Made by a program: the position numbers and the translations under genes. A stretch of DNA of 64,000 bases from Methanotrichaceae archaeon (GTDB lineage Archaea > Halobacteriota > Methanosarcinia > Methanotrichales > Methanotrichaceae): positions 1 through 64,000 of the forward strand of contig CAWEXU010000010.1 of assembly GCA_963813075.1 (NCBI GenBank), written 5' to 3'. Within the stretch, counting starts at the first letter, position 1. The number at the start of each line of letters is the position of its first letter. The notes below the pieces were generated by a model, which was not told the origin of the DNA, searched no databases, and was given only the letters and a program-made list of their open reading frames with translations. This document shows positions 10,227 through 19,720 of the stretch, piece after piece.

Positions 10227-11300
10227 TTGGCAAAGATACTGATAAGAGGCGGGGATCTGGACCTGGTTGAGTACGAGTTCCAGCCCTTTGTCCCGGGCCA
10301 GTGCATAAAGACCCTGGGATTGGAAAAAGACTACAAGCTCACGCCGGTTTCAGGAAAAGTCACAGCTACCACTCCTGGTCGAATCCACCTGACTGTGCTG
10401 GACATGAACCGCTTCGCCCCCAACCGGCCGGGTGGGGGAGGAATGGGCTTTGCCCTGCAGATCTACTGCTCTGCTCAGGTGGAGTGCACCCCATCCGGGC
10501 TGGAGATCGACTATTCTCGGGAGCCCATAATCCGCCATTTTGTGGAGGTATTCAGAAAGACGGTCCGCTATGAGGGCGGATTCAGAATTGTAGTCCGGGA
10601 CCACCAGAAAAAGCACGTAGGCCTCGGCTCCACCGGATCGGTCCTATTAGCTCTAGGCCATGCCATGAACACCGCTTTGGGCTCGCCACTCACCAGAAAA
10701 GATATCCGACTGCTCATCGGCCACAACTATGTGGAGGAGACCGAAGATGGCAGGGTAACAAACGGCTTTGAGACCGGCGTGGGTCCGGCAGCAGCAACCT
10801 ACGGAGGCATGGTAATAACCGGCGACGAGCTGGCTCTGGTCTACAAGCACCGGTTTGCTGAGGGCAAGAATGTCTTTGTCACCATCCCCCCCACCATCGT
10901 CTCCTCCGCCGGCCGCTCGGAGTTCGATCTGCTCATGAACCGGGCCAGAAACCTTGATTATCAGGACCGGGAGCTCAAAGCCTATCTGATGCTCATGGAC
11001 CTCATCCCCGCCCTGGAGAGGGGCGACCTGAAGAAGATCGGCGACACCATCTGGGAGATTGAGTTCCGGGGCTCGAAAAGGGCCGAAGTGGAGCACCATG
11101 GCTTTGAGATCTACCGCTACATGAGCATTCTGCGAGAATCTGGCCTGGAGTTCGTGGGCATGAGCTCGGTTGGCCCTTCCATCGCCATTGTCACCGAACG
11201 CAGCCGGGATGAGGTGGCGAAGATAATTGAGCCGGTGGGCCTGGAGATCGCCGTGGAGACCAGGGTGGACAATGAAGGCCTGAAGGTGAGCATAGAATAA
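10227..11300 (+). CDS. GHMP-kinase fold protein, beta-RFAP synthase-like
   Basis: TPGRIHLTVLD, HVGLGSTG, GMSSVGP motifs; GAGGTG RBS before TTG. Confidence 0.75.
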   Translation: MAKILIRGGDLDLVEYEFQPFVPGQCIKTLGLEKDYKLTPVSGKVTATTPGRIHLTVLDMNRFAPNRPGGGGMGFALQIYCSAQVECTPSGLEIDYSREPIIRHFVEVFRKTVRYEGGFRIVVRDHQKKHVGLGSTGSVLLALGHAMNTALGSPLTRKDIRLLIGHNYVEETEDGRVTNGFETGVGPAAATYGGMVITGDELALVYKHRFAEGKNVFVTIPPTIVSSAGRSEFDLLMNRARNLDYQDRELKAYLMLMDLIPALERGDLKKIGDTIWEIEFRGSKRAEVEHHGFEIYRYMSILRESGLEFVGMSSVGPSIAIVTERSRDEVAKIIEPVGLEIAVETRVDNEGLKVSIE

Positions 11301-11326: not shown

Positions 11327-11746
11327 TCAGGGATTCATCCTCTTTCTCTCCCGAACCACCTGGCCAGCCGCCCTCTCCGCCTCAATGCTGCGTCGACATT
11401 GAGGACAGATCCAGATCCATTCCAATCCCGTTGAGTCCTTCTGCAGGCCTCCGGGCAGGGAAGCCTCGATCTTCATCAGGCTGGGGAGGGTGGCATAGGG
11501 CGATTTGCAGACCCTGCATTCCACCAGCTCAAAACAGATCTCGCTCTCCAATATTGACTCATCATAGGGCACCAGAGCAAGCGCTTTGGCCGGGCAGAAC
11601 TCGACGCACAGATCGCACTCCTCTTTGCACCTCTTCCAGTGAATGGTTCTGGAGTCGCTTGTATCCGTCCGGACGATGTTCTGGCTGGGGCAGACATTGG
11701 AGCAGGCCTGGCAGCCCAGACACAGGCTCAAATCTACCTTAATCAT
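11327..11746 (-). CDS. HycF-like 4Fe-4S protein
   Basis: CLGCQACSNVCP, CDLCVEFCP, then CRVC...CPQCRR. Confidence 0.8.
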   Translation of the reverse strand: MIKVDLSLCLGCQACSNVCPSQNIVRTDTSDSRTIHWKRCKEECDLCVEFCPAKALALVPYDESILESEICFELVECRVCKSPYATLPSLMKIEASLPGGLQKDSTGLEWIWICPQCRRSIEAERAAGQVVRERKRMNP

Positions 11747-12180
11747 GCTCTACCTCCCCTGGCGATGAGCATGGCCGCACGATTGCGAGCCCTCATGCTG
11801 GCGAGTTCATAGTCCAGGCTGAGAGCACTGGCGGGACAGGTGGTAACGCAGGCCGGCGCATCCCGGCCGGAGCACAGATCGCATTTATGAGCTATTTTGT
11901 CCGTCCAGACCACTCCAAAGGGACAGGCCAGCTGGCACAGGCCGCAGCCAGTGCATTTCTCTACATCAAACGCCGTCTTCTCACCCTCTTTGTGCAGGGC
12001 ACCGGTAGCGCAAACCATGGTGCAGCAGGCTTCCTCACAGTGATGGCAGAAGACCGGAACTGATGCCAGACTTCCCACAAAATGAACATTGATATGCCCT
12101 TTGCCTCCGTGCACCCGATCGCAGGCCACCTCGCAGGACCGGCATCCTATACATCTGCTGATATCAATATAAACTGGCAT
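11743..12180 (-). CDS. HycB/DmsB-like 4x[4Fe-4S] protein
   Basis: CIGCRSCEVAC, CHHC..C..VC, CTGCGLCQLACP, CDLC...CVTTCP. Confidence 0.9.
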   Translation of the reverse strand: MPVYIDISRCIGCRSCEVACDRVHGGKGHINVHFVGSLASVPVFCHHCEEACCTMVCATGALHKEGEKTAFDVEKCTGCGLCQLACPFGVVWTDKIAHKCDLCSGRDAPACVTTCPASALSLDYELASMRARNRAAMLIARGGRA

Positions 12181-14271
12181 CTAATCCCTCCGGGTGATCT
12201 TGCAGGCCGAGACCTTGTACTCCGGTATCCTGGCCTCAGAATCGGCAAATTCAGAGGTCAGGATGTTGGTTCCAGGGAAATGGAAGGGCATGAATACCAC
12301 CCCTCTTTTCATGCCATCTGTGAGCCTTGCCGCCGCCACTGCTTCTCCTCGGGGCGAGGCCACCGTCACCTCATCTCCATCGGCCACATTCAGCTGTTGG
12401 GCATCCTTTGGATTGAGCTCTAAGAAGAGATCGGGCTCACGCTTTTGAAGGGAAGGACTGCGGCGGGTCATGGACCCGGCGTTATGATGCACTGCCACCC
12501 GTCCGGTGGTGAGGACAAAGGGATACTCAGAGCTGACAGTCTCTGCAGCAGGCCGGTATTGAACAGGCACAATCGCCGCCCGGCCCCCATCGAGCTTGAA
12601 TCCCCCGCCATGAAGTATGGGGGTTCCCGGATGGCTGGAGTCCGGACAGGGCCAGACCAGCCCCTGTGGACCGAGACGATCCCGGCTGATTCCGCCATAC
12701 TGGGGCACCAGGCGGTTGATCTCCGCCAAAACCGATGCCGCGTCCGGATAGCTGAAATCCAGACCCATCCGGCCGGCAACCCGGCATATGATATCCAGGT
12801 CCGAAAGGGCGCTGCCAGGCGGCTCGATAGCTTTGGAACTCCACTGGACCCTTCTTTCGGTGCTGGTGTAGCTGCCCTCCTTCTCCGCCCAGACCGCCGC
12901 AGGCAAAACGACATCCGCGAGCTTTGCGGTTGAGGTCATGAAGATATCCTGCACCACCAGAAAATCAAGAGCTTCCAGGGCTTTTTGCGCATTATGGCTG
13001 CAGGGCTCAGAATTTGCCGGGTCCTCCCCCATGATGTACATCGCCCGAAGCCTGCCCTCTTCTCCCTCTCTTCCTTCTCTTCCCTCTCTTCCCTCTCTTC
13101 CCTCTCTTGCCACTCCTGCCTTTTCGATCATCTCCGTGGCCGTGAGGCCCTTTCCCAAGGGAAGACCCTCTATCCCCCAGCCAGTCTCGAAGAGCCTGAT
13201 CGTCTCCGGGTCGTCTGCCTTCCTGTAGCCGGGATAAAACTCGGCCAGTGCGCCCATATCGCAGGCACCCTGCACATTGTTCTGGCCGCGCAGAGGCATG
13301 ATGCCAGTCCCCTCCCTACCCAACTGGCCGCAGATCAGGGCCAGGTTGGCTATGGCCTGAACATTCTCCGTTCCGGTGGTGTGCTGGGTGATCCCCATGG
13401 AGTAGAGGATGACCGAGGCCGATGAAGTGGCATAAGAGCGTGCCGCCCGGACAATATCGCTGGCAGGAACGCCCGTTACGTCAGCCACCCTCTGCGGGGT
13501 GTACTCGGCCGTTGCCGCCACCAGATCCTCAAAGCCCCGCGTATGCTTTTCTATGTAGGATCGATTGACCAGCCCCTCTTTGATAATCACATGGGCCAGG
13601 CCGTTGAGAAGAGCGACATCCGTCCCCGGTTTTAAAGGGAGGAAGATATCGGCCATCCAGGAGGTATGAGTCCGGCGGGGATCGGCAACTATTACCGTCG
13701 CTCCGGCATCACGAGCCCGGTGGACCCAGCGGGAGAGGACGGCATGGTTTTCGGCGAGGTTCGATCCGATGATGAAAATGCACTTTGAGTTGGCGATATC
13801 AGGAATGGGATTGGTCATTCCCGCCGCCCCAAGGGTGCGGTTCAGCCCCACTACCGAAGGAGCATGGCAGAGCCGGGCGCAGCTGTCCACATTCCTGCAG
13901 CCAATGGATCTGGCCAGCTTCCCGAAGAGGTAGTTCTCCTCGTTGCTGCACTTGGAGGAGGACAAAAAGCCGATGCTGTCCGGCCCGTACCTTTTCAGAG
14001 CACTGCCAAGGCCTTTTGCCACCAGCTCCAGGGCCATATCCCAGGATATCCTCTCCCAGCCGTCTCCTTTTTTCCTCAGGGGGGTTCGGAGCCGTTCTGG
14101 GTGATAGATGATCTCCAAAGCGGCATTTCCCTTGGGACAGAGAGCTCCTTCACTTGCAGGGTGATCGGGCATATATTCGATCCCCGTGGCGTGCTCCTTC
14201 TCGACTGCGATAAAAAATCCGCAGCCTGCACCGCAGTACGGACAGACCGTTGGAACAAGCGCTCTTGCCAT
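12181..14271 (-). CDS. fdhA: formate dehydrogenase alpha subunit (Cys type, FdhF/FdhA-like)
   Basis: CPYCGAGC..CPKG, CARLCHAPS, LRGQNNVQGACDMG, C-terminal molybdopterin-dinucleotide domain; GGAGG RBS before ATG 14271. Confidence 0.92.
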   Translation of the reverse strand: MARALVPTVCPYCGAGCGFFIAVEKEHATGIEYMPDHPASEGALCPKGNAALEIIYHPERLRTPLRKKGDGWERISWDMALELVAKGLGSALKRYGPDSIGFLSSSKCSNEENYLFGKLARSIGCRNVDSCARLCHAPSVVGLNRTLGAAGMTNPIPDIANSKCIFIIGSNLAENHAVLSRWVHRARDAGATVIVADPRRTHTSWMADIFLPLKPGTDVALLNGLAHVIIKEGLVNRSYIEKHTRGFEDLVAATAEYTPQRVADVTGVPASDIVRAARSYATSSASVILYSMGITQHTTGTENVQAIANLALICGQLGREGTGIMPLRGQNNVQGACDMGALAEFYPGYRKADDPETIRLFETGWGIEGLPLGKGLTATEMIEKAGVAREGREGREGREGREGEEGRLRAMYIMGEDPANSEPCSHNAQKALEALDFLVVQDIFMTSTAKLADVVLPAAVWAEKEGSYTSTERRVQWSSKAIEPPGSALSDLDIICRVAGRMGLDFSYPDAASVLAEINRLVPQYGGISRDRLGPQGLVWPCPDSSHPGTPILHGGGFKLDGGRAAIVPVQYRPAAETVSSEYPFVLTTGRVAVHHNAGSMTRRSPSLQKREPDLFLELNPKDAQQLNVADGDEVTVASPRGEAVAAARLTDGMKRGVVFMPFHFPGTNILTSEFADSEARIPEYKVSACKITRRD
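13055..13108 (-). repeat. 9-nt in-frame microrepeat (GRE)n inside fdhA
   Basis: (TCCCTCTCT)n on the + strand; encodes AREGREGREGREGREGEEGR. Confidence 0.9.
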
Positions 14272-14284
14272 TCCTAACCTCCAT

Positions 14285-15040
14285 TTAATATGTATATAGA
14301 CCGCTGTAGGGTCTCTTTGACCTCGGGGTGAGCTTGACGAAATCATCATTCAGGAGCTTTTCCCGGTTCAGTTCAAGCTCAGGGAACTTTTCCATGAACC
14401 CGGTCACATACCTATGCAAAATCTCTCGATCGGCTTGGTCAATGGGCGAAATCTCCACCTGATCTCCCACCTGCGAAGGGTTCACTGAGCCCCGCAGATA
14501 TATGGTCCCGCCGTGCATCCCCGTTCCCATGAAGTTCGCCCGGTGGCCCTGGTCTCTAAGATCCAGGAGGATGACTGTTCCTCCGGCCATGTACTCGCCC
14601 AGGAAGTCCTGGGCAGTGCCGCCTATGACCAGAACCGGCCTTTTGCTCTCGAACTCCTTCATATGCAGGGCGGTTCGGTAGCCGCAGCCGTCCCGCACAT
14701 ATATCGAGCCCCCTCGCATGGAAAAGCCAAGGACATCCCCTGCTCTTCCCTCCACCACGATCTCTCCGTCATCCATGGTGTTTCCCACCCCGTCCTGGGC
14801 ATTGCCATGCACAACCACTTTGTGGCCGAAGAGAAAGGCAGCCAGGTCGTTTCCTGGGGTGCCGAAGATATCGATCTCTATTTGATGCCGCTCTGGCGAG
14901 TACAGTCTGGTGCCGATATAGCGCTGGCCGCATACATTTCTGATGATCACCTTTCTCTCGCCGGAGAGCATCAGATCCCTCAGCCGATCGTTCAACTCTC
15001 TGGTCTTGAGATTCTGGGCATCGATCTCGACCGTTCCCAT
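14285..15040 (-). CDS. gltB3: glutamate synthase GXGXG beta-helix subunit (GltB3)
   Basis: GQRYIG, GTPGNDL, GNAQDGVGNTM, DFLGEYMAGG; GGAGGTG RBS. Confidence 0.9.
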   Translation of the reverse strand: MGTVEIDAQNLKTRELNDRLRDLMLSGERKVIIRNVCGQRYIGTRLYSPERHQIEIDIFGTPGNDLAAFLFGHKVVVHGNAQDGVGNTMDDGEIVVEGRAGDVLGFSMRGGSIYVRDGCGYRTALHMKEFESKRPVLVIGGTAQDFLGEYMAGGTVILLDLRDQGHRANFMGTGMHGGTIYLRGSVNPSQVGDQVEISPIDQADREILHRYVTGFMEKFPELELNREKLLNDDFVKLTPRSKRPYSGLYTY

Positions 15041-15099
15041 ACAGTCACCTCCTGCCAGGCCCTGGCTGATTGGTATGACGCAAATCTCTCCATCTTCGA

Positions 15100-16616
15100 T
15101 CATTCTCCCGCTCCTTTTATTCCCAGGACATCCAGCTCCCACTCATAAAGCCCCACGCCCCGCAGGTGATCGCGGTTGCCGCGCAGGCTCTCTAAGGCAT
15201 TGATTCCCATCCCACCAAGCATCTCTTTGATCTCATGAGACCAGGCAGTGAAATGAGGTTTGTCAGGCGCTGGGAGGCTATTTCCACATTCAGCCGGCCT
15301 GCCAGTCGCGGATCCTGAGTGCAGATGCCCCAGTTGCATTTGCCGGTGTAGCATTTCTGGCAGAGGTTGCATCCCATGGCGATTAGAGCGGCCGAGCCGA
15401 TATAAGTGGCGTCAGCTCCCAGGGCTATGGCCTTGATCACATCGGCGCTGCAACGAATTCCCCCCGCAGCGATGATCGAGCACCGGTTCCTGATGCCGTC
15501 CTGGCGGAGCCGCCGGTCCAGAGAGGATATGGCCAGCTCTATTGGTATTCCCACGTTGTCCCTGATCACCTTGGGAGCAGCGCCAGTTCCTCCCCGAAGG
15601 CCATCGATGGCGATGATATCTGCGCCCGCATGAACTATCCCCGCGGCAATGGCGGCGAAGTTGTGCACGGCAGCGATCTTGACCGACACCGGCTTCTCGT
15701 AGTTTGTGGCCTCCTTGATGGCATGGATGAGCATTGACAGGTCCTCGATGGAGTAGATGTCATGGTGCGGTGCCGGGGAGATGGCGTCGGTCCCCACTGG
15801 AATCATCCGGGTGGCGGAGACGGCATCTGAGACCTTCTCTCCGGGCAGGTGGCCGCCGATTCCCGGTTTGGCTCCCTGGCCCACCTTGATCTCCACCGCA
15901 GCGGCGCAGTTGAGGTACTCGGCGTCTATGCCGAAGCGGCCGGATGCAACCTGGACGATGGCATGCCGGCCGAACTTTTCCCTCATCTCCCTGGGAAGGC
16001 CACCCTCGCCGGTATTGAAGTAAGTGCCGGATTTTGATGCGGCAGTGGCCAGTGAGAGGAAGGCATTGTAGCTGATCGCTCCGTAGGACATGGCGGAGAA
16101 GACGATGGGCGTTTGGACCATCAGATTGGGCGAGATCTCTGTTGCTATCTCTACATCTCCGTCATTCTCCCTGAACTCCATCAGGTCCGGCTTGGCTCCG
16201 AGAAACGTGCGCAGCTCCATCGGCTCTCTCAGGGGGTCGATTGATGGGTTGGTGACCTGAGAGGCATTCAGGACCATATGGTCCCAGTATATCCGGAAGG
16301 ACTTGTCGTTGCCGCATCCGGTCAGTATCACCCCGCCGGTCTCGGCCTGCTTTTTGACGTCCTCCATCTTCTCCCGAGACCAGGAGGCGTTCGATCGGTA
16401 GAATGACGGGTTGGGCCGGACCACTATGGCATCATGGGGGCAGAAGATGGTGCATCTCTGGCAGCCGGCGCATTTGTAATCGTCAGATATCAATCGATCG
16501 CTCACCGGATCGTAGGTGTGGGTGCCAAATGCACACTGCCTCTCGCAGCCCCGGCACTGGCCGCATTTTGCCTCGTCCCTGATGATCTGAAACTCAGGAA
16601 AGACGAATGATTTCAT
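15100..16616 (-). CDS. gltB2: glutamate synthase FMN-binding subunit with N-terminal 2x[4Fe-4S] (frameshift ~15245)
   Basis: SAMSYGA, NTGEGG, QVASGRFG, EIKVGQGAKPGIGGHLPGEKV, CNLCQKCYTGKC; C-terminus in the 15100-15372 frame. Confidence 0.95.
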
Positions 16617-16617
16617 C

Positions 16618-17736
16618 TTATGCCCTCCTGTTGTTAAGTTCGCATATTACCGGTTCTCCTCCGTTGGGGGTCCAGACGGAGTCTAATTCCGGCGAGATAA
16701 GTCTGATCGACGCTTCTTCGCTGGAGAGGTAGAACATCTCTCCTTTTGCAGCTGCTGTTATCGGCCGAAGGCGGATTCTGTCCGTCAGGCCGATCAGCCT
16801 GCCCGTCTGGCCGATGATGATGGCAAAGGGGCCGTTCATGAGCAGGGGACCGTAGACCATTCTCAGTGTGGTGAAGAGCTTCTTCTCCTTCTCGTTCATG
16901 GTATCGATGGCATTCCAGATGGGCGGGGCCAGGATCCTGGCCACGATCTCCATCGGTATTCTCTGCCTTCTGAGGAGTAGGTCTGCGGCATAAGCTATGA
17001 CCTCGGTATCGGTCTGCAGAGTGCAGGCGTAGCCGTACATCTCCAGGTACCAGCGGTTGGTGCCGTAAGAGGAGATCTCGCCGTTGTGCACGATGCTCGT
17101 GTCCAGCAGGCTGAAGGGATGGGCTCCTCCCCACCAGGCCTGGGTATTGGTGGGAAACCGGCCGTGAGCGGTCCAGGCATAAGCGGAGTAAAGCTCGTCG
17201 AGCATGAAGTACTCGCCGATCTCCTCCGGATAGCCCACCCCCTTGAAGCAGCCCATGTTTTTCCCGGAGGAGAATATGTAGGCGTCTTCCGCTCTGCTGT
17301 TGGTCTGCATCACCATTTTCACCACATATTCCTCGTCTGACAGGCTGGCGTCCTCTCCCCTTTTTCTGGGGAGGGCGAAGTAGCGCCAGATGAGGGGTGG
17401 ATCTCGAAGGAGGACCTCGGAGCGGTGAGGGATCTGTTCGTCGTAGACCACATCGAAGTTCTGGTTGAGGTATTGCTCGAATTCCGCCTTGGCCGATCTC
17501 TGCCCCTCGAGGGTTTTGCCGTTGAACATCAGATGGAAGGCATAGTAATCCCGATACTCGGGATATATGCCGTAAGCTGCAAAGCCTCCGCCCAGGCCGT
17601 TGCCCCGCACATGCATGTTGGCTATAGCCTTCATGACCTTGCCCGCGTTAAAGCGTTCACCATCCCGGTTCATTGCCCCGAAGATGGAGCAAGCGCAGAT
17701 CTCCTTATTGTATAGCTCTCTTCTCGTCCTTGGCAT
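16618..17736 (-). CDS. gltB1: glutamate synthase amidotransferase subunit (class II GATase)
   Basis: CSIFG, RGNGLGGGFA, HGRFPTNT, HPF, VHNGEISSY, TDTE. Confidence 0.92.
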   Translation of the reverse strand: MPRTRRELYNKEICACSIFGAMNRDGERFNAGKVMKAIANMHVRGNGLGGGFAAYGIYPEYRDYYAFHLMFNGKTLEGQRSAKAEFEQYLNQNFDVVYDEQIPHRSEVLLRDPPLIWRYFALPRKRGEDASLSDEEYVVKMVMQTNSRAEDAYIFSSGKNMGCFKGVGYPEEIGEYFMLDELYSAYAWTAHGRFPTNTQAWWGGAHPFSLLDTSIVHNGEISSYGTNRWYLEMYGYACTLQTDTEVIAYAADLLLRRQRIPMEIVARILAPPIWNAIDTMNEKEKKLFTTLRMVYGPLLMNGPFAIIIGQTGRLIGLTDRIRLRPITAAAKGEMFYLSSEEASIRLISPELDSVWTPNGGEPVICELNNRRA

Positions 17737-17826
17737 AGCAACCCTGAACTCCAGCCGACCTTGCAGCTTTTCTTTATAGACAATTCTCTGGGTCTAATCC
17801 AGCAGCCAGATTCGTCCCCAGAATGC

Positions 17827-19161
17827 TCACAGGAGTGGCAGGTACCGGTTCAGCTCCCACTGGGTGACGTTCATGCGGTAGGCATCCCACTCTGCCTTCT
17901 TGTTGGCGATGAAGGCCCGGAAGACGTGCTCGCCCAAAGCCTCCCGGACGAGGGTGCTCTTCTCGGTTATGTTGATGGCATCGTTCAGGCTGCCGGGAAG
18001 GGAGGTGATTCCTGCTTTCGCCCTCTGTTCATCGGTCATGTGGTAAATATCCTGCTCCTGGGGCGAGGGGAGGTCGTACTTGTTGGCGATGCCGGCAAGC
18101 CCTGCGGCCAGCATGACTGAGAAGGCCAGGTAGGGATTTGCTGCCGGGTCCGGGCTGCGGTACTCCACTCTTGTGGCCGCCTCCTTTCCGGGCTTGTACA
18201 TGGGGACTCTGACCAGAGAGGACCTGTTCCTCCTCGCCCAGGCGATGTAAACCGGAGCCTCGTAGCCGGGGACCAGCCGCTTGTAGGAGTTGACCCACTG
18301 GTTGGTGACGGCGGTGATCTCGGGGGCGTGCCTGAGAAGGCCGGCGATATAGTATCTGCCCTCATCGGATAGATTGAACTCGTTGCCGGGATCGAACATC
18401 ACATTTCTTTTCCCCTGGAAGAGGGACTGGTGGACGTGCATTCCGCTGCCGTTCTGGCCGAAGATGGGTTTGGGCATGAAGCTGGCATGATAGCCGTATC
18501 TGCGGGCGATCTCCTTGACGGTGATCTTGTAGGTCATCACCGTGTCCGCCATGGAGAGGGCATCCTTGTATCTCAGGTCGATCTCATGCTGGGAGGGTGC
18601 GACCTCGTGGTGGCTATACTCCACATCGATCCCCATGGAGTCCAGGGCGAGGATGGTGTCCCTTCTCAGGTCGGTGGCGTTGTCTGCCGTGGTCAGGTCG
18701 AAGTATCCGCCGTTATCCAGGACCTCGGTGTTGTTCTCTCCTTTGAAGTAGAAGAACTCCAGCTCCGGGCCCACCAGGAAGCTATAGCCGTCGTCTTTAA
18801 GGCGGCTCAGGTTCCTTTTGAGCACATATCTGGGATCGCCCTCGTACGGGCTGCCGTCCGGGTTCTGGATGTCACAGAACATCCTGGCCACGGCGTTCTC
18901 CTGCTGCCTCCAGGGGATGAGCTGGAAGGTGGTGGGATCGGGCTTGGCGACCATGTCCGACTCATGAATCCTGGCAAAACCCTCGATGGATGAGCCGTCA
19001 AAGCCCATGCCCTCGGAGAATGCTCCATCCAGCTCCGTGGGATTTATGGCGAAGCTCTTGGGAACTCCCAGGATATCTGTAAACCAAATTCGGACAAATC
19101 TTACATTATACTTGTCTATTGCCTCAAAGACTTCCTCTTTAGACTTTGTTTGCAGAGCCAT
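17827..19161 (-). CDS. glnA: glutamine synthetase type I-alpha
   Basis: FDGSSIEGF, GPELEFF, HHEVAPSQHE, FMPKP..NGSGMHVHQS, RVEYRSPDP; GGAGG RBS. Confidence 0.97.
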   Translation of the reverse strand: MALQTKSKEEVFEAIDKYNVRFVRIWFTDILGVPKSFAINPTELDGAFSEGMGFDGSSIEGFARIHESDMVAKPDPTTFQLIPWRQQENAVARMFCDIQNPDGSPYEGDPRYVLKRNLSRLKDDGYSFLVGPELEFFYFKGENNTEVLDNGGYFDLTTADNATDLRRDTILALDSMGIDVEYSHHEVAPSQHEIDLRYKDALSMADTVMTYKITVKEIARRYGYHASFMPKPIFGQNGSGMHVHQSLFQGKRNVMFDPGNEFNLSDEGRYYIAGLLRHAPEITAVTNQWVNSYKRLVPGYEAPVYIAWARRNRSSLVRVPMYKPGKEAATRVEYRSPDPAANPYLAFSVMLAAGLAGIANKYDLPSPQEQDIYHMTDEQRAKAGITSLPGSLNDAINITEKSTLVREALGEHVFRAFIANKKAEWDAYRMNVTQWELNRYLPLL

Positions 19162-19199
19162 TTCTCTTACCTCCAAGTAGAAGGTACCTTTGAGCGGAA

Positions 19200-19207
19200 T
19201 TTATAGA
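19200..19207 (-). promoter_or_regulatory. candidate TATA box of the glnA operon
   Basis: TCTATAAA on the minus strand ~40 nt upstream of the glnA ATG. Confidence 0.5.
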
Positions 19208-19720
19208 TATTTGAGAATAAGGCTGAAAAGTTATGAAAAATTATGAGCGCATGTTGTTCATTTCTGAGGCGTGCAATTGTATTGAACAGGGAAATGATAG
19301 TTATGAATAGCTCATAATAGGAAGTGATCGGAAAGAATTTGGTCAGGGATTTAAAACGCGGGGTGATGCAAAAAAGAAGTTAGAAAAACCGACCATATGG
19401 CAAATTGACCTGGGTGATTGAGTGCATGACCATAAGTACGACCATAGCATGTCCTGCGGATCAGGGCGCTGATGAGCCCCCAAAAAGAGTTGTGCGTCCG
19501 GCCCACCTAGCCGCTCTCATTCAAGTTTTTAAAGGGAGGACTGTACATCTATTGTCTCACATTTGCCCTCTCACCCAAAATGCTTAAGTAGTAAATTGGT
19601 ATAACATATATAAAAAATTTATGAAAAGATACAAAGTCTGAGGCAGGTCTATCTGCCAGGAAGGGAAAAGGTCCCCAGGTTCCTGCCCGACTGCTATCAG
19701 ATCATAAATGGGGGGAGAAT

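Follow-up and report, generated by a model that had tools for sequence, protein, structure and literature searches.

The stretch of DNA analysed here (the window: 64,000 nt, positions 1 to 64,000 of contig CAWEXU010000010.1 in assembly GCA_963813075.1) comes from a Methanotrichaceae archaeon and carries a split glutamate synthase (GOGAT) whose three genes run directly into genes for a formate dehydrogenase (FDH) and two iron-sulfur (Fe-S) proteins. All seven genes of the string, glnA-gltB1-gltB2-gltB3-fdhA-FeS1-FeS2, lie on the minus strand between 11327 and 19161 and are separated, from glnA to FeS2, by 90, 1, 59, 13, 0 and -4 nt; recomputed coordinates agree with the initial annotation, made from the DNA letters alone, in the order of the genes and in all six gap lengths. 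Judged from sequence and a structure model, fdhA-FeS1-FeS2 is an FdhF-HycB-HycF-type arm that ends freely, no hydrogenase or membrane genes being attached, and trees and gene neighbourhoods show it to descend from a cooS-cooF-fdhA-FeS1-FeS2 operon. The reading we favour, and to which we would give about an even chance, is that the FeS1-FeS2 pair acts as a shared wire that would carry electrons to GltB2, while the linked FDH would serve as an optional entry point for formate.

The catalytic subunit of the arm is well defined. FdhA scores 785.8 bits against an Fdh-alpha equivalog cut-off of 666.25 (TIGR01591), and its nearest matches in the PDB are the alpha chain of F420-dependent FDH and the FdhF of hydrogen-dependent CO2 reductase (HDCR). 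Its four Fe-S cysteines, Lys47, the Cys135-His136 pair and Arg328 are invariant in 33/33 gltB3-linked copies, which bears out the Fe-S, Cys-His and Arg motifs picked out initially; residues and score together are those of an FdhF-type FDH with a Mo/W-bis-pyranopterin guanine dinucleotide (bisPGD) cofactor, and the direction in which such an enzyme runs, formate oxidation or CO2 reduction, cannot be read from its sequence. The ratio of nonsynonymous to synonymous substitution rates (dN/dS) among gltB-linked FdhA is 0.07-0.22 in 10/10 pairs, similar to that of gltB3. The window copy has a private peculiarity, in that the six copies of a 9-nt repeat give an in-frame, charged insertion of 18 aa that the 32 other gltB3-linked FdhA do not have.

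FeS1 matches profiles of HDCR HycB4/HycB3 and of HycB from formate hydrogenlyase (FHL), and its 16 cysteines are invariant in 70/70 copies. For FeS2, the structure model (predicted local distance difference test score, pLDDT, 90.8) has as its top Foldseek match the HycF of FHL (7z0t_F), over the whole length of FeS2 and with a template modelling (TM) score of 0.72. The alignment begins at HycF residue 38-39, and docking on a complex-I-like base seems less likely since the N-terminal segment of HycF, ~30 residues, is not present in FeS2. The second FeS2 cluster is intact in every gltB-linked copy and lost in old cooS-linked copies of two genera, g6 and g8 (our family sample comprises 81 genomes, with genus codes g1, g3-g8, g10, g11, g13 and g14 among those named). 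The operon encodes no [NiFe] hydrogenase, and none was found in the genome (83% complete) except one 68-column PF00374 fragment. The net charges of FeS1, FeS2 and the GltB2 N-terminal domain are near neutral and uninformative, and prediction of a complex between GltB2 (33-row alignment) and FeS2 (34 rows) returned a score of 0.00 in two runs with controls that did not fold, and speaks neither for nor against contact.

As in other split archaeal glutamate synthases, the glutamine amidotransferase (GATase), flavin mononucleotide (FMN) synthase and GXGXG subunits are encoded by separate adjacent genes. Cys16 of GltB1 is conserved in 42/42 aligned locus copies, and the cysteines of the N-terminal 2x[4Fe-4S] and the [3Fe-4S] sites of GltB2 are invariant across 33 homologues, the window copy being frameshifted. 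The operon holds no GltD or other pyridine-nucleotide flavoprotein, as would mark an NAD(P)H-dependent GOGAT, and no FrhB/Fsr-N-type subunit is encoded with gltB, as would mark the F420-dependent type of glutamate synthase (FGltS); GltD/NfnB-like and FrhB-family genes lie elsewhere in the genome. The initial annotation saw none of the usual electron-input partners (GltD-like flavoprotein, ferredoxin or FrhB-like F420 subunit) in the operon, which is right for GltD-like and FrhB-like subunits but too strong for ferredoxins, FeS1 and FeS2 being polyferredoxin-type carriers.

It also treated gltB2 as one gene, overlooking a 2-nt frameshift that became apparent on re-reading the frames: with two extra bases near 15247-15260, the main frame stops at 15192 and the last ~48 codons lie in another frame. 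This is likely an assembly error, because gltB2 is intact in relatives (a ~504-aa protein), contigs of two DNA runs do not have the two bases (X1, 39.7 of 46.5 depth; X2, 4.22 of 13.8), and the same assembly also breaks up cooS (four pieces), fdhC, fdhD, an amt gene and a further fdhA (contigs C13, C16, C30). The splitting of so many conserved genes by frameshifts suggests indel errors in the assembly.

Within the family, whose genomes are kin and not independent data points, gltB2 was found in 65/81 genomes. In 35 of these fdhA lies directly behind gltB3 (the contig ends inside fdhA in three); in nine FeS1-FeS2 take that place and fdhA is absent; two have a truncated fdhA and keep the Fe-S pair; 14 have gltB1-3 without the arm in cis; and five are unplaced, the locus being at a contig edge or not among the loci examined. 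The Fe-S pair is thus held in cis at 46/60 resolved loci. Linkage of gltB, fdhA and the Fe-S genes spans six genus codes, with FdhA identity down to 62%, and the complete string is also present in loci L204 and L199; FeS2 occurs in 34/34 g1 relatives and 71/80 family genomes. The family search for FdhA missed at least one known copy (G031), so that absences mean 'not found'. The initial annotation had left the wider conservation of gltB123 plus fdhA to a synteny search, and the linkage proves conserved inside the family (35/60 resolved loci) but absent from the loci examined outside it (0/60). Several g8 genomes (L082, L083; also L010, L013, L024, L025) carry a second FdhA, of 56-64% identity, directly after FeS2; in L082 this gene is met by a convergent NfnAB-FDH-FNT cluster. 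Locus L152, a contig of 3.9 kb under the title Methanoregula, has gltB3-fdhA-FeS at 76-90% identity to the window and is probably mis-binned.

What occupies the corresponding position outside the family is informative. The comparison set comprised 60 gltB loci, namely 20 of the 69 in the class, plus 40 that came from 39 of the 81 matching phylum genomes beyond the class. None of the 60 has fdhA or FeS2, and among the loci examined the gltB-fdhA-FeS operon is confined to Methanotrichaceae. Instead, 27/60 have an FrhB-family subunit directly after gltB3, the putative FGltS-alpha in the accessible text of PMC3448663, and 14/60 have a gene for a HydN-like 4x[4Fe-4S] protein, which makes such a protein an established GOGAT neighbour; 12 of these 14 stand beside a gene for 425-467 aa, a pyridine-nucleotide flavoprotein in 3/3 scanned. 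Families with HydN-like protein plus flavoprotein (f7, f11, f14, f30, f32) include the closest GltB2 relatives. Judged from these loci, the exchange of input modules around one gltB core is the strongest support for the initial proposal that the FDH feeds GOGAT. Two further arrangements were noted in passing: an HdrB/D-like gene of family f4 (445 aa, CCG-domain/4Fe-4S; L094:2241-3578, L095:2246-3580) overlaps the gltB1 start, possibly a further type of GOGAT electron input, and several f3 loci have HdrBC-like genes near glnA-gltB, as judged from sequence starts alone.

The origin of the arm can be traced. The trio fdhA-FeS1-FeS2 follows cooS-cooF in g3, g5, g6, g7, g10, g11 and g14, while g8 and g13 have a second copy so placed; gltB-linked FdhA nest inside the cooS-linked group, and FeS1 clusters with its cooS-operon counterparts rather than with the HydN-like proteins found next to GOGAT in other families. 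The sister group of arm FdhA consists of stand-alone FdhA without Fe-S genes in the loci examined, often near fwd, modABC-like genes or fdhD. Monophyly of gltB-linked FdhA was rejected (approximately unbiased test, p-AU 0.009; 20 of 77 rows, LG+G4), for a group defined after seeing the FastTree tree. Recruitment of the arm to gltB may have happened twice, and a single recruitment with a later return to cooS in g3, g11, g10 and g14 fits equally well; the gltB tree allows both, and two independent recruitments are for that reason not claimed. The cooS-cooF-fdhA-FeS1-FeS2 operon is conserved in many Methanotrichaceae (L076, L077, L078, L080, L081, L122, L123, L124, L130, L146-L148), with fdhA truncated in some copies (L119-L121), and by analogy resembles a CO-driven CO2 reductase, HDCR-like with CooS replacing the hydrogenase. 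Two g4 loci (L125, L126) have a cluster of modABC-like, FrhB-family, fmdE, stand-alone fdhA and fdhD genes, possibly an F420-linked FDH.

A predicted formate/nitrite (FNT-family) transporter is encoded in 64/81 family genomes, 32/34 in g1 and 0/7 in g6, a genus with gltB standing alone in all 6 of its resolved loci. The maturation factor FdhD is found in 79/81, the copy in the genome of the window being split in two, and that genome also has two DUF1297 (PurP-family) genes and one NrdD gene, whose products we take to use formate. Formate-driven glutamate synthesis is strongly downhill, at ~ -75 kJ/mol and ~ -53 at 10 uM formate, as computed from redox potentials. As for previous work, in the text available to us the roles of Methanothrix FDHs are called 'not clear' (PMC6687939), an fdhA-hdrABC cluster is expressed in Methanothrix while formate use is 'controversial' (PMC7382037), and FrhB10 is placed with glutamate synthase and a ferredoxin-oxidising Fpo described in Methanosaeta (PMC9012536).

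In the mechanism we propose, a split GOGAT acquired an FdhF-HycB-HycF-type arm that came from a cooS-cooF-fdhA-FeS1-FeS2 operon; at the electron-input position this arm would take the place of the F420 or NAD(P)H subunits on which other Halobacteriota rely. Formate would be oxidised at the Mo/W-bisPGD site of FdhA, and electrons would pass from the FdhA cluster through the four clusters of FeS1 and the two of FeS2 to the N-terminal clusters of GltB2, then to its [3Fe-4S] cluster and FMN, there to reduce the 2-iminoglutarate formed from 2-oxoglutarate and the ammonia released by GltB1. The indispensable part would be the soluble FeS1-FeS2 wire, with a second role besides GOGAT; the linked FdhA would be an optional, co-expressed charger, replaceable by a stand-alone FdhA paralogue, by CooS-CooF or by ferredoxin from acetate oxidation. 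It is tempting to picture FdhA-FeS1-FeS2-GltB1-B2-B3 as a stable six-subunit, formate-dependent glutamate synthase, although we consider this stricter version doubtful.

A number of observations weigh against an arm dedicated to glutamate synthesis. Eleven loci retain gltB and the Fe-S pair although their fdhA is deleted or truncated, and another 14 gltB loci lack the arm in cis, so GOGAT does not need this FDH; the state of fdhA changes six times on a 24-genome gltB tree, and a contig of run X1 skips 12190-14287, that is, the whole of fdhA. Nine g1 genomes lack gltB2, and the linked fdhA is retained in only one of them (G017, with fdhA and the Fe-S pair behind glnA); the other eight have the Fe-S pair and no intact linked fdhA. 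In these eight the Fe-S pair has all its cysteines and is under purifying selection, with a dN/dS of 0.20-0.34 in the four pairs measured. We considered and dropped relaxed selection after gltB loss, as full-operon pairs at similar dS give 0.24-0.30. In G051 an nfnA-like gene abuts FeS1 that in G057 (92% identical) precedes glnA, so a deletion left only the Fe-S pair, and the five gltB-less, fdhA-less genomes checked have lost the operon glnA and possess glutamate dehydrogenase. Retention of the pair after loss of both gltB and fdhA implies a job outside glutamine synthetase/GOGAT. A second FeS1-FeS2 pair stands alone behind a transposase in the genome of the window itself (G000:C31:63263-64116; L071:8264-9216).

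Donors in trans have to be reckoned with as well. FrhB-family paralogues occur in 80/81 family genomes, away from gltB and at no more than 40% identity to the FGltS-alpha query; an F420 donor may still act in trans, since true gltB-neighbour FrhB subunits in family f9 also score 40-43%. An NfnB/GltD-like gene within an FDH-Nfn cluster (contig C13) could likewise act in trans. The HydN-associated flavoprotein was found in 0/81 family genomes at E 1e-40, in a search without a positive control. Finally, several relatives have an AT-rich gap in front of fdhA, as long as 72 nt, in which an internal promoter could lie. As a separate observation, the FeS1-FeS2 pair persists or moves alone, without FDH or GOGAT and with all cysteines intact, in loci L111-L118, L127 and L128.

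These facts leave the idea of an anabolic FDH feeding GOGAT partly standing: the conserved linkage, the slot held elsewhere by an F420 subunit and the FNT transporter in 64/81 genomes speak for it, but fdhA is dispensable and the Fe-S pair not specific to GOGAT. They also invite other explanations. If the coupling were indirect, an ordinary ferredoxin-dependent GOGAT would merely share the glnA promoter with a general formate:ferredoxin oxidoreductase that replenishes reduced ferredoxin, without direct contact, as the 14 gltB loci lacking the arm and an Fe-S pair that moves and survives without gltB might suggest. Yet acetoclasts already make reduced ferredoxin from the carbonyl group of acetate, which leaves the extra need for it not obvious, and the place of the arm directly behind gltB3 would go unexplained. 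The available text of PMC8965080 cuts both ways, in that T. onnurineus Fdh3A alone reduces ferredoxin but, where ferredoxin is of low potential, the reaction favours CO2 reduction; overall we regard indirect coupling as unlikely.

We think it rather more improbable that the arm is a passenger, its Fe-S pair serving another complex (a stand-alone FdhA paralogue, Fwd or Fpo) and borrowing a strong promoter while a redundant linked fdhA is being lost. The pair is indeed present in every g1 genome whatever the upstream deletion, fdhA has been lost repeatedly, and the stand-alone FdhA that is sister to the arm is followed by no Fe-S gene in the loci examined; but purifying selection acts on the linked fdhA as strongly as on gltB3, the linkage extends over six genus codes in which FdhA identity falls to 62%, and the missing HycF N-terminal segment would disfavour a complex-I-like partner. 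The arm could also run in reverse, reducing CO2 to formate at the expense of CO or ferredoxin for purine and deoxynucleotide synthesis and being co-regulated with glutamine supply. Its ancestor probably ran that way, the closest solved relatives include HDCR FdhF and HycB3/HycB4, and the DUF1297 and NrdD genes would presumably provide the demand. A need for formate would, however, outlast gltB, yet the linked fdhA is gone in 8/9 gltB-less g1 genomes; the genome has no fewer than six further FdhA-like genes, accompanied by FdhB-, AsrAB-like and NfnAB-like partners, and most family genomes have the FNT transporter. We hold a CO2 reductase to be the least probable of these explanations. A shared Fe-S wire with an optional FDH thus remains the reading we prefer.

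Table 1. Features of the glnA-gltB-fdhA-FeS operon and its upstream region in the window.
Feature	Position	Strand	Basis
Palindrome TATGA-N5-TCATA in glnA upstream region, putative regulator site	19301..19317	-	commonest dyad, 13/28 glnA upstream regions; 3 sites in genome
Conserved direct repeat of TCATAA with 11-bp period, immediately upstream of promoter core	19226..19246	-	matrix from 27 relatives
BRE/TATA-like promoter core of operon	19199..19215	-	conserved across family glnA upstream regions
glnA, type I glutamine synthetase, 444 aa	17827..19161	-	TIGR00653, 546.5 bits vs cut-off 429.15 (above equivalog cut-off)
gltB1, glutamine amidotransferase subunit of split GOGAT, 372 aa	16618..17736	-	Pfam GATase_2
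gltB2, FMN/[3Fe-4S] synthase subunit with N-terminal 2x[4Fe-4S] domain	15100..16616	-	Pfam Glu_synthase (intact relative); 2-nt frameshift near 15247-15260
gltB3, GXGXG subunit, 251 aa	14285..15040	-	Pfam GXGXG
fdhA, Cys-type Mo/W-bisPGD FDH catalytic subunit, FdhF-like, 696 aa	12181..14271	-	TIGR01591; PDB matches; active-site residues
Six copies of 9-nt repeat in fdhA	13055..13108	-	TRF
FeS1, HycB/HydN-like 4x[4Fe-4S] protein, 145 aa	11743..12180	-	profile matches to HycB-type proteins
FeS2, HycF-like 2x[4Fe-4S] protein with extra 4-Cys site, 139 aa	11327..11746	-	structure model and Foldseek

Co-transcription of the operon seems likely from gaps of 12-15 nt in several genomes. A contig of run X17 spans the gltB3-fdhA junction (13947-14432), with 17 differences and 13 gaps, which is not proof of a single transcript; the RNA runs gave only contigs with small shares, and the cover of neither run can rank genes. 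Upstream of glnA, the TCATAA repeat scores 40.5 bits by matrix against 21.3 for the next-best site, making it unique in the genome by score, and its position suggests an activator site. GGAA-N6-TTCC, which we take to be the NrpR-type operator, occurs in 0/28 glnA upstream regions, though the genome has two NrpR-domain genes, and the operon thus does not look like part of an NrpR regulon; ACC-N7-GGT, presumably another operator pattern, occurs in 3/28, at scattered positions. As the element upstream of glnA was not found upstream of amt genes among its top 22 genome matches, it cannot be named a nitrogen-regulon site, and nitrogen control is plausible on the strength of co-location with glnA. 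A scan for sigma-70 promoters and terminators, a method not suited to archaea, stayed at chance level. Convergent to the operon lies a beta-ribofuranosylaminobenzene 5'-phosphate (beta-RFAP) synthase-like gene (10227-11300; 84.6 vs 328 bits, under the NCBIfam cut-offs), which stays beside the operon end in the closest relatives.

In the literature found, the electron donor of GOGAT in Methanothrix-type acetoclasts is not established, and the operon offers a testable answer that bears on the role of FDH as well, with full-operon, fdhA-deleted, gltB-deleted and cooS-linked variants as natural controls. If the reading is true, GOGAT would have a further electron donor, and the main acetate consumers of digesters and wetlands would be a small anabolic sink for formate. 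On the stricter six-subunit version, formate would be a new class of GOGAT donor beside NADH, NADPH, ferredoxin and F420, and acetoclastic Methanotrichaceae could scavenge syntrophic formate for ammonia assimilation, which would explain FDHs and a formate-family transporter in organisms that do not grow on formate. The retained FeS1-FeS2 pair points to an essential electron carrier in Methanotrichaceae. We found no description of a gltB-fdhA operon in the open-licence literature, a search that did not extend to supplements; tables of genome papers may list the genes.

Several known systems resemble the operon in part. The Methanothrix FdhA-HdrABC cluster (MCON_3277-83, PMC7382037) is likewise an FDH expressed in Methanothrix for which formate use is proposed, but it is separate, catabolic and tied to Hdr, and the available part of that report does not cover the gltB-linked copy. 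Thermococcus Fdh3 (PMC8965080; TK2074-2078, PMC12016516) is, as far as those texts go, a soluble FDH with two Fe-S subunits that reduces ferredoxin, similar in make-up to the arm; its neighbour annotated 'glutamate synthase' is an NAD(P)-binding subunit of the Fdh3B type, not a catalytic GltB core, and the Methanotrichaceae operon has no NAD(P) subunit. FdhF-HycB-HycF of E. coli FHL (PDB 7z0s/7z0t) and FdhF-HycB3-HycB4 of HDCR (7qv7) are built from the three protein types of the arm, placed in the same sequence along the electron path; compared with FHL, however, the operon is without hydrogenase and membrane subunits, FeS2 is without the N-terminal ~30 residues of HycF, and the proposed sink is biosynthetic. 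With FGltS, in the accessible account (PMC3448663), it shares the split GltB1-B2-B3 core and a dedicated input gene directly after gltB3, but that slot holds FdhA and two Fe-S proteins and no FrhB-family gene. As in the HydN/flavoprotein split GOGATs, a 4x[4Fe-4S] protein of the HydN/CooF type accompanies gltB1-3, whereas the donor enzyme of the operon is an FDH and not a flavoprotein. By its defining parts, then, the operon is not FGltS, NAD(P)H-GOGAT or FHL, and is predicted to work like a split GOGAT with a swapped input module.

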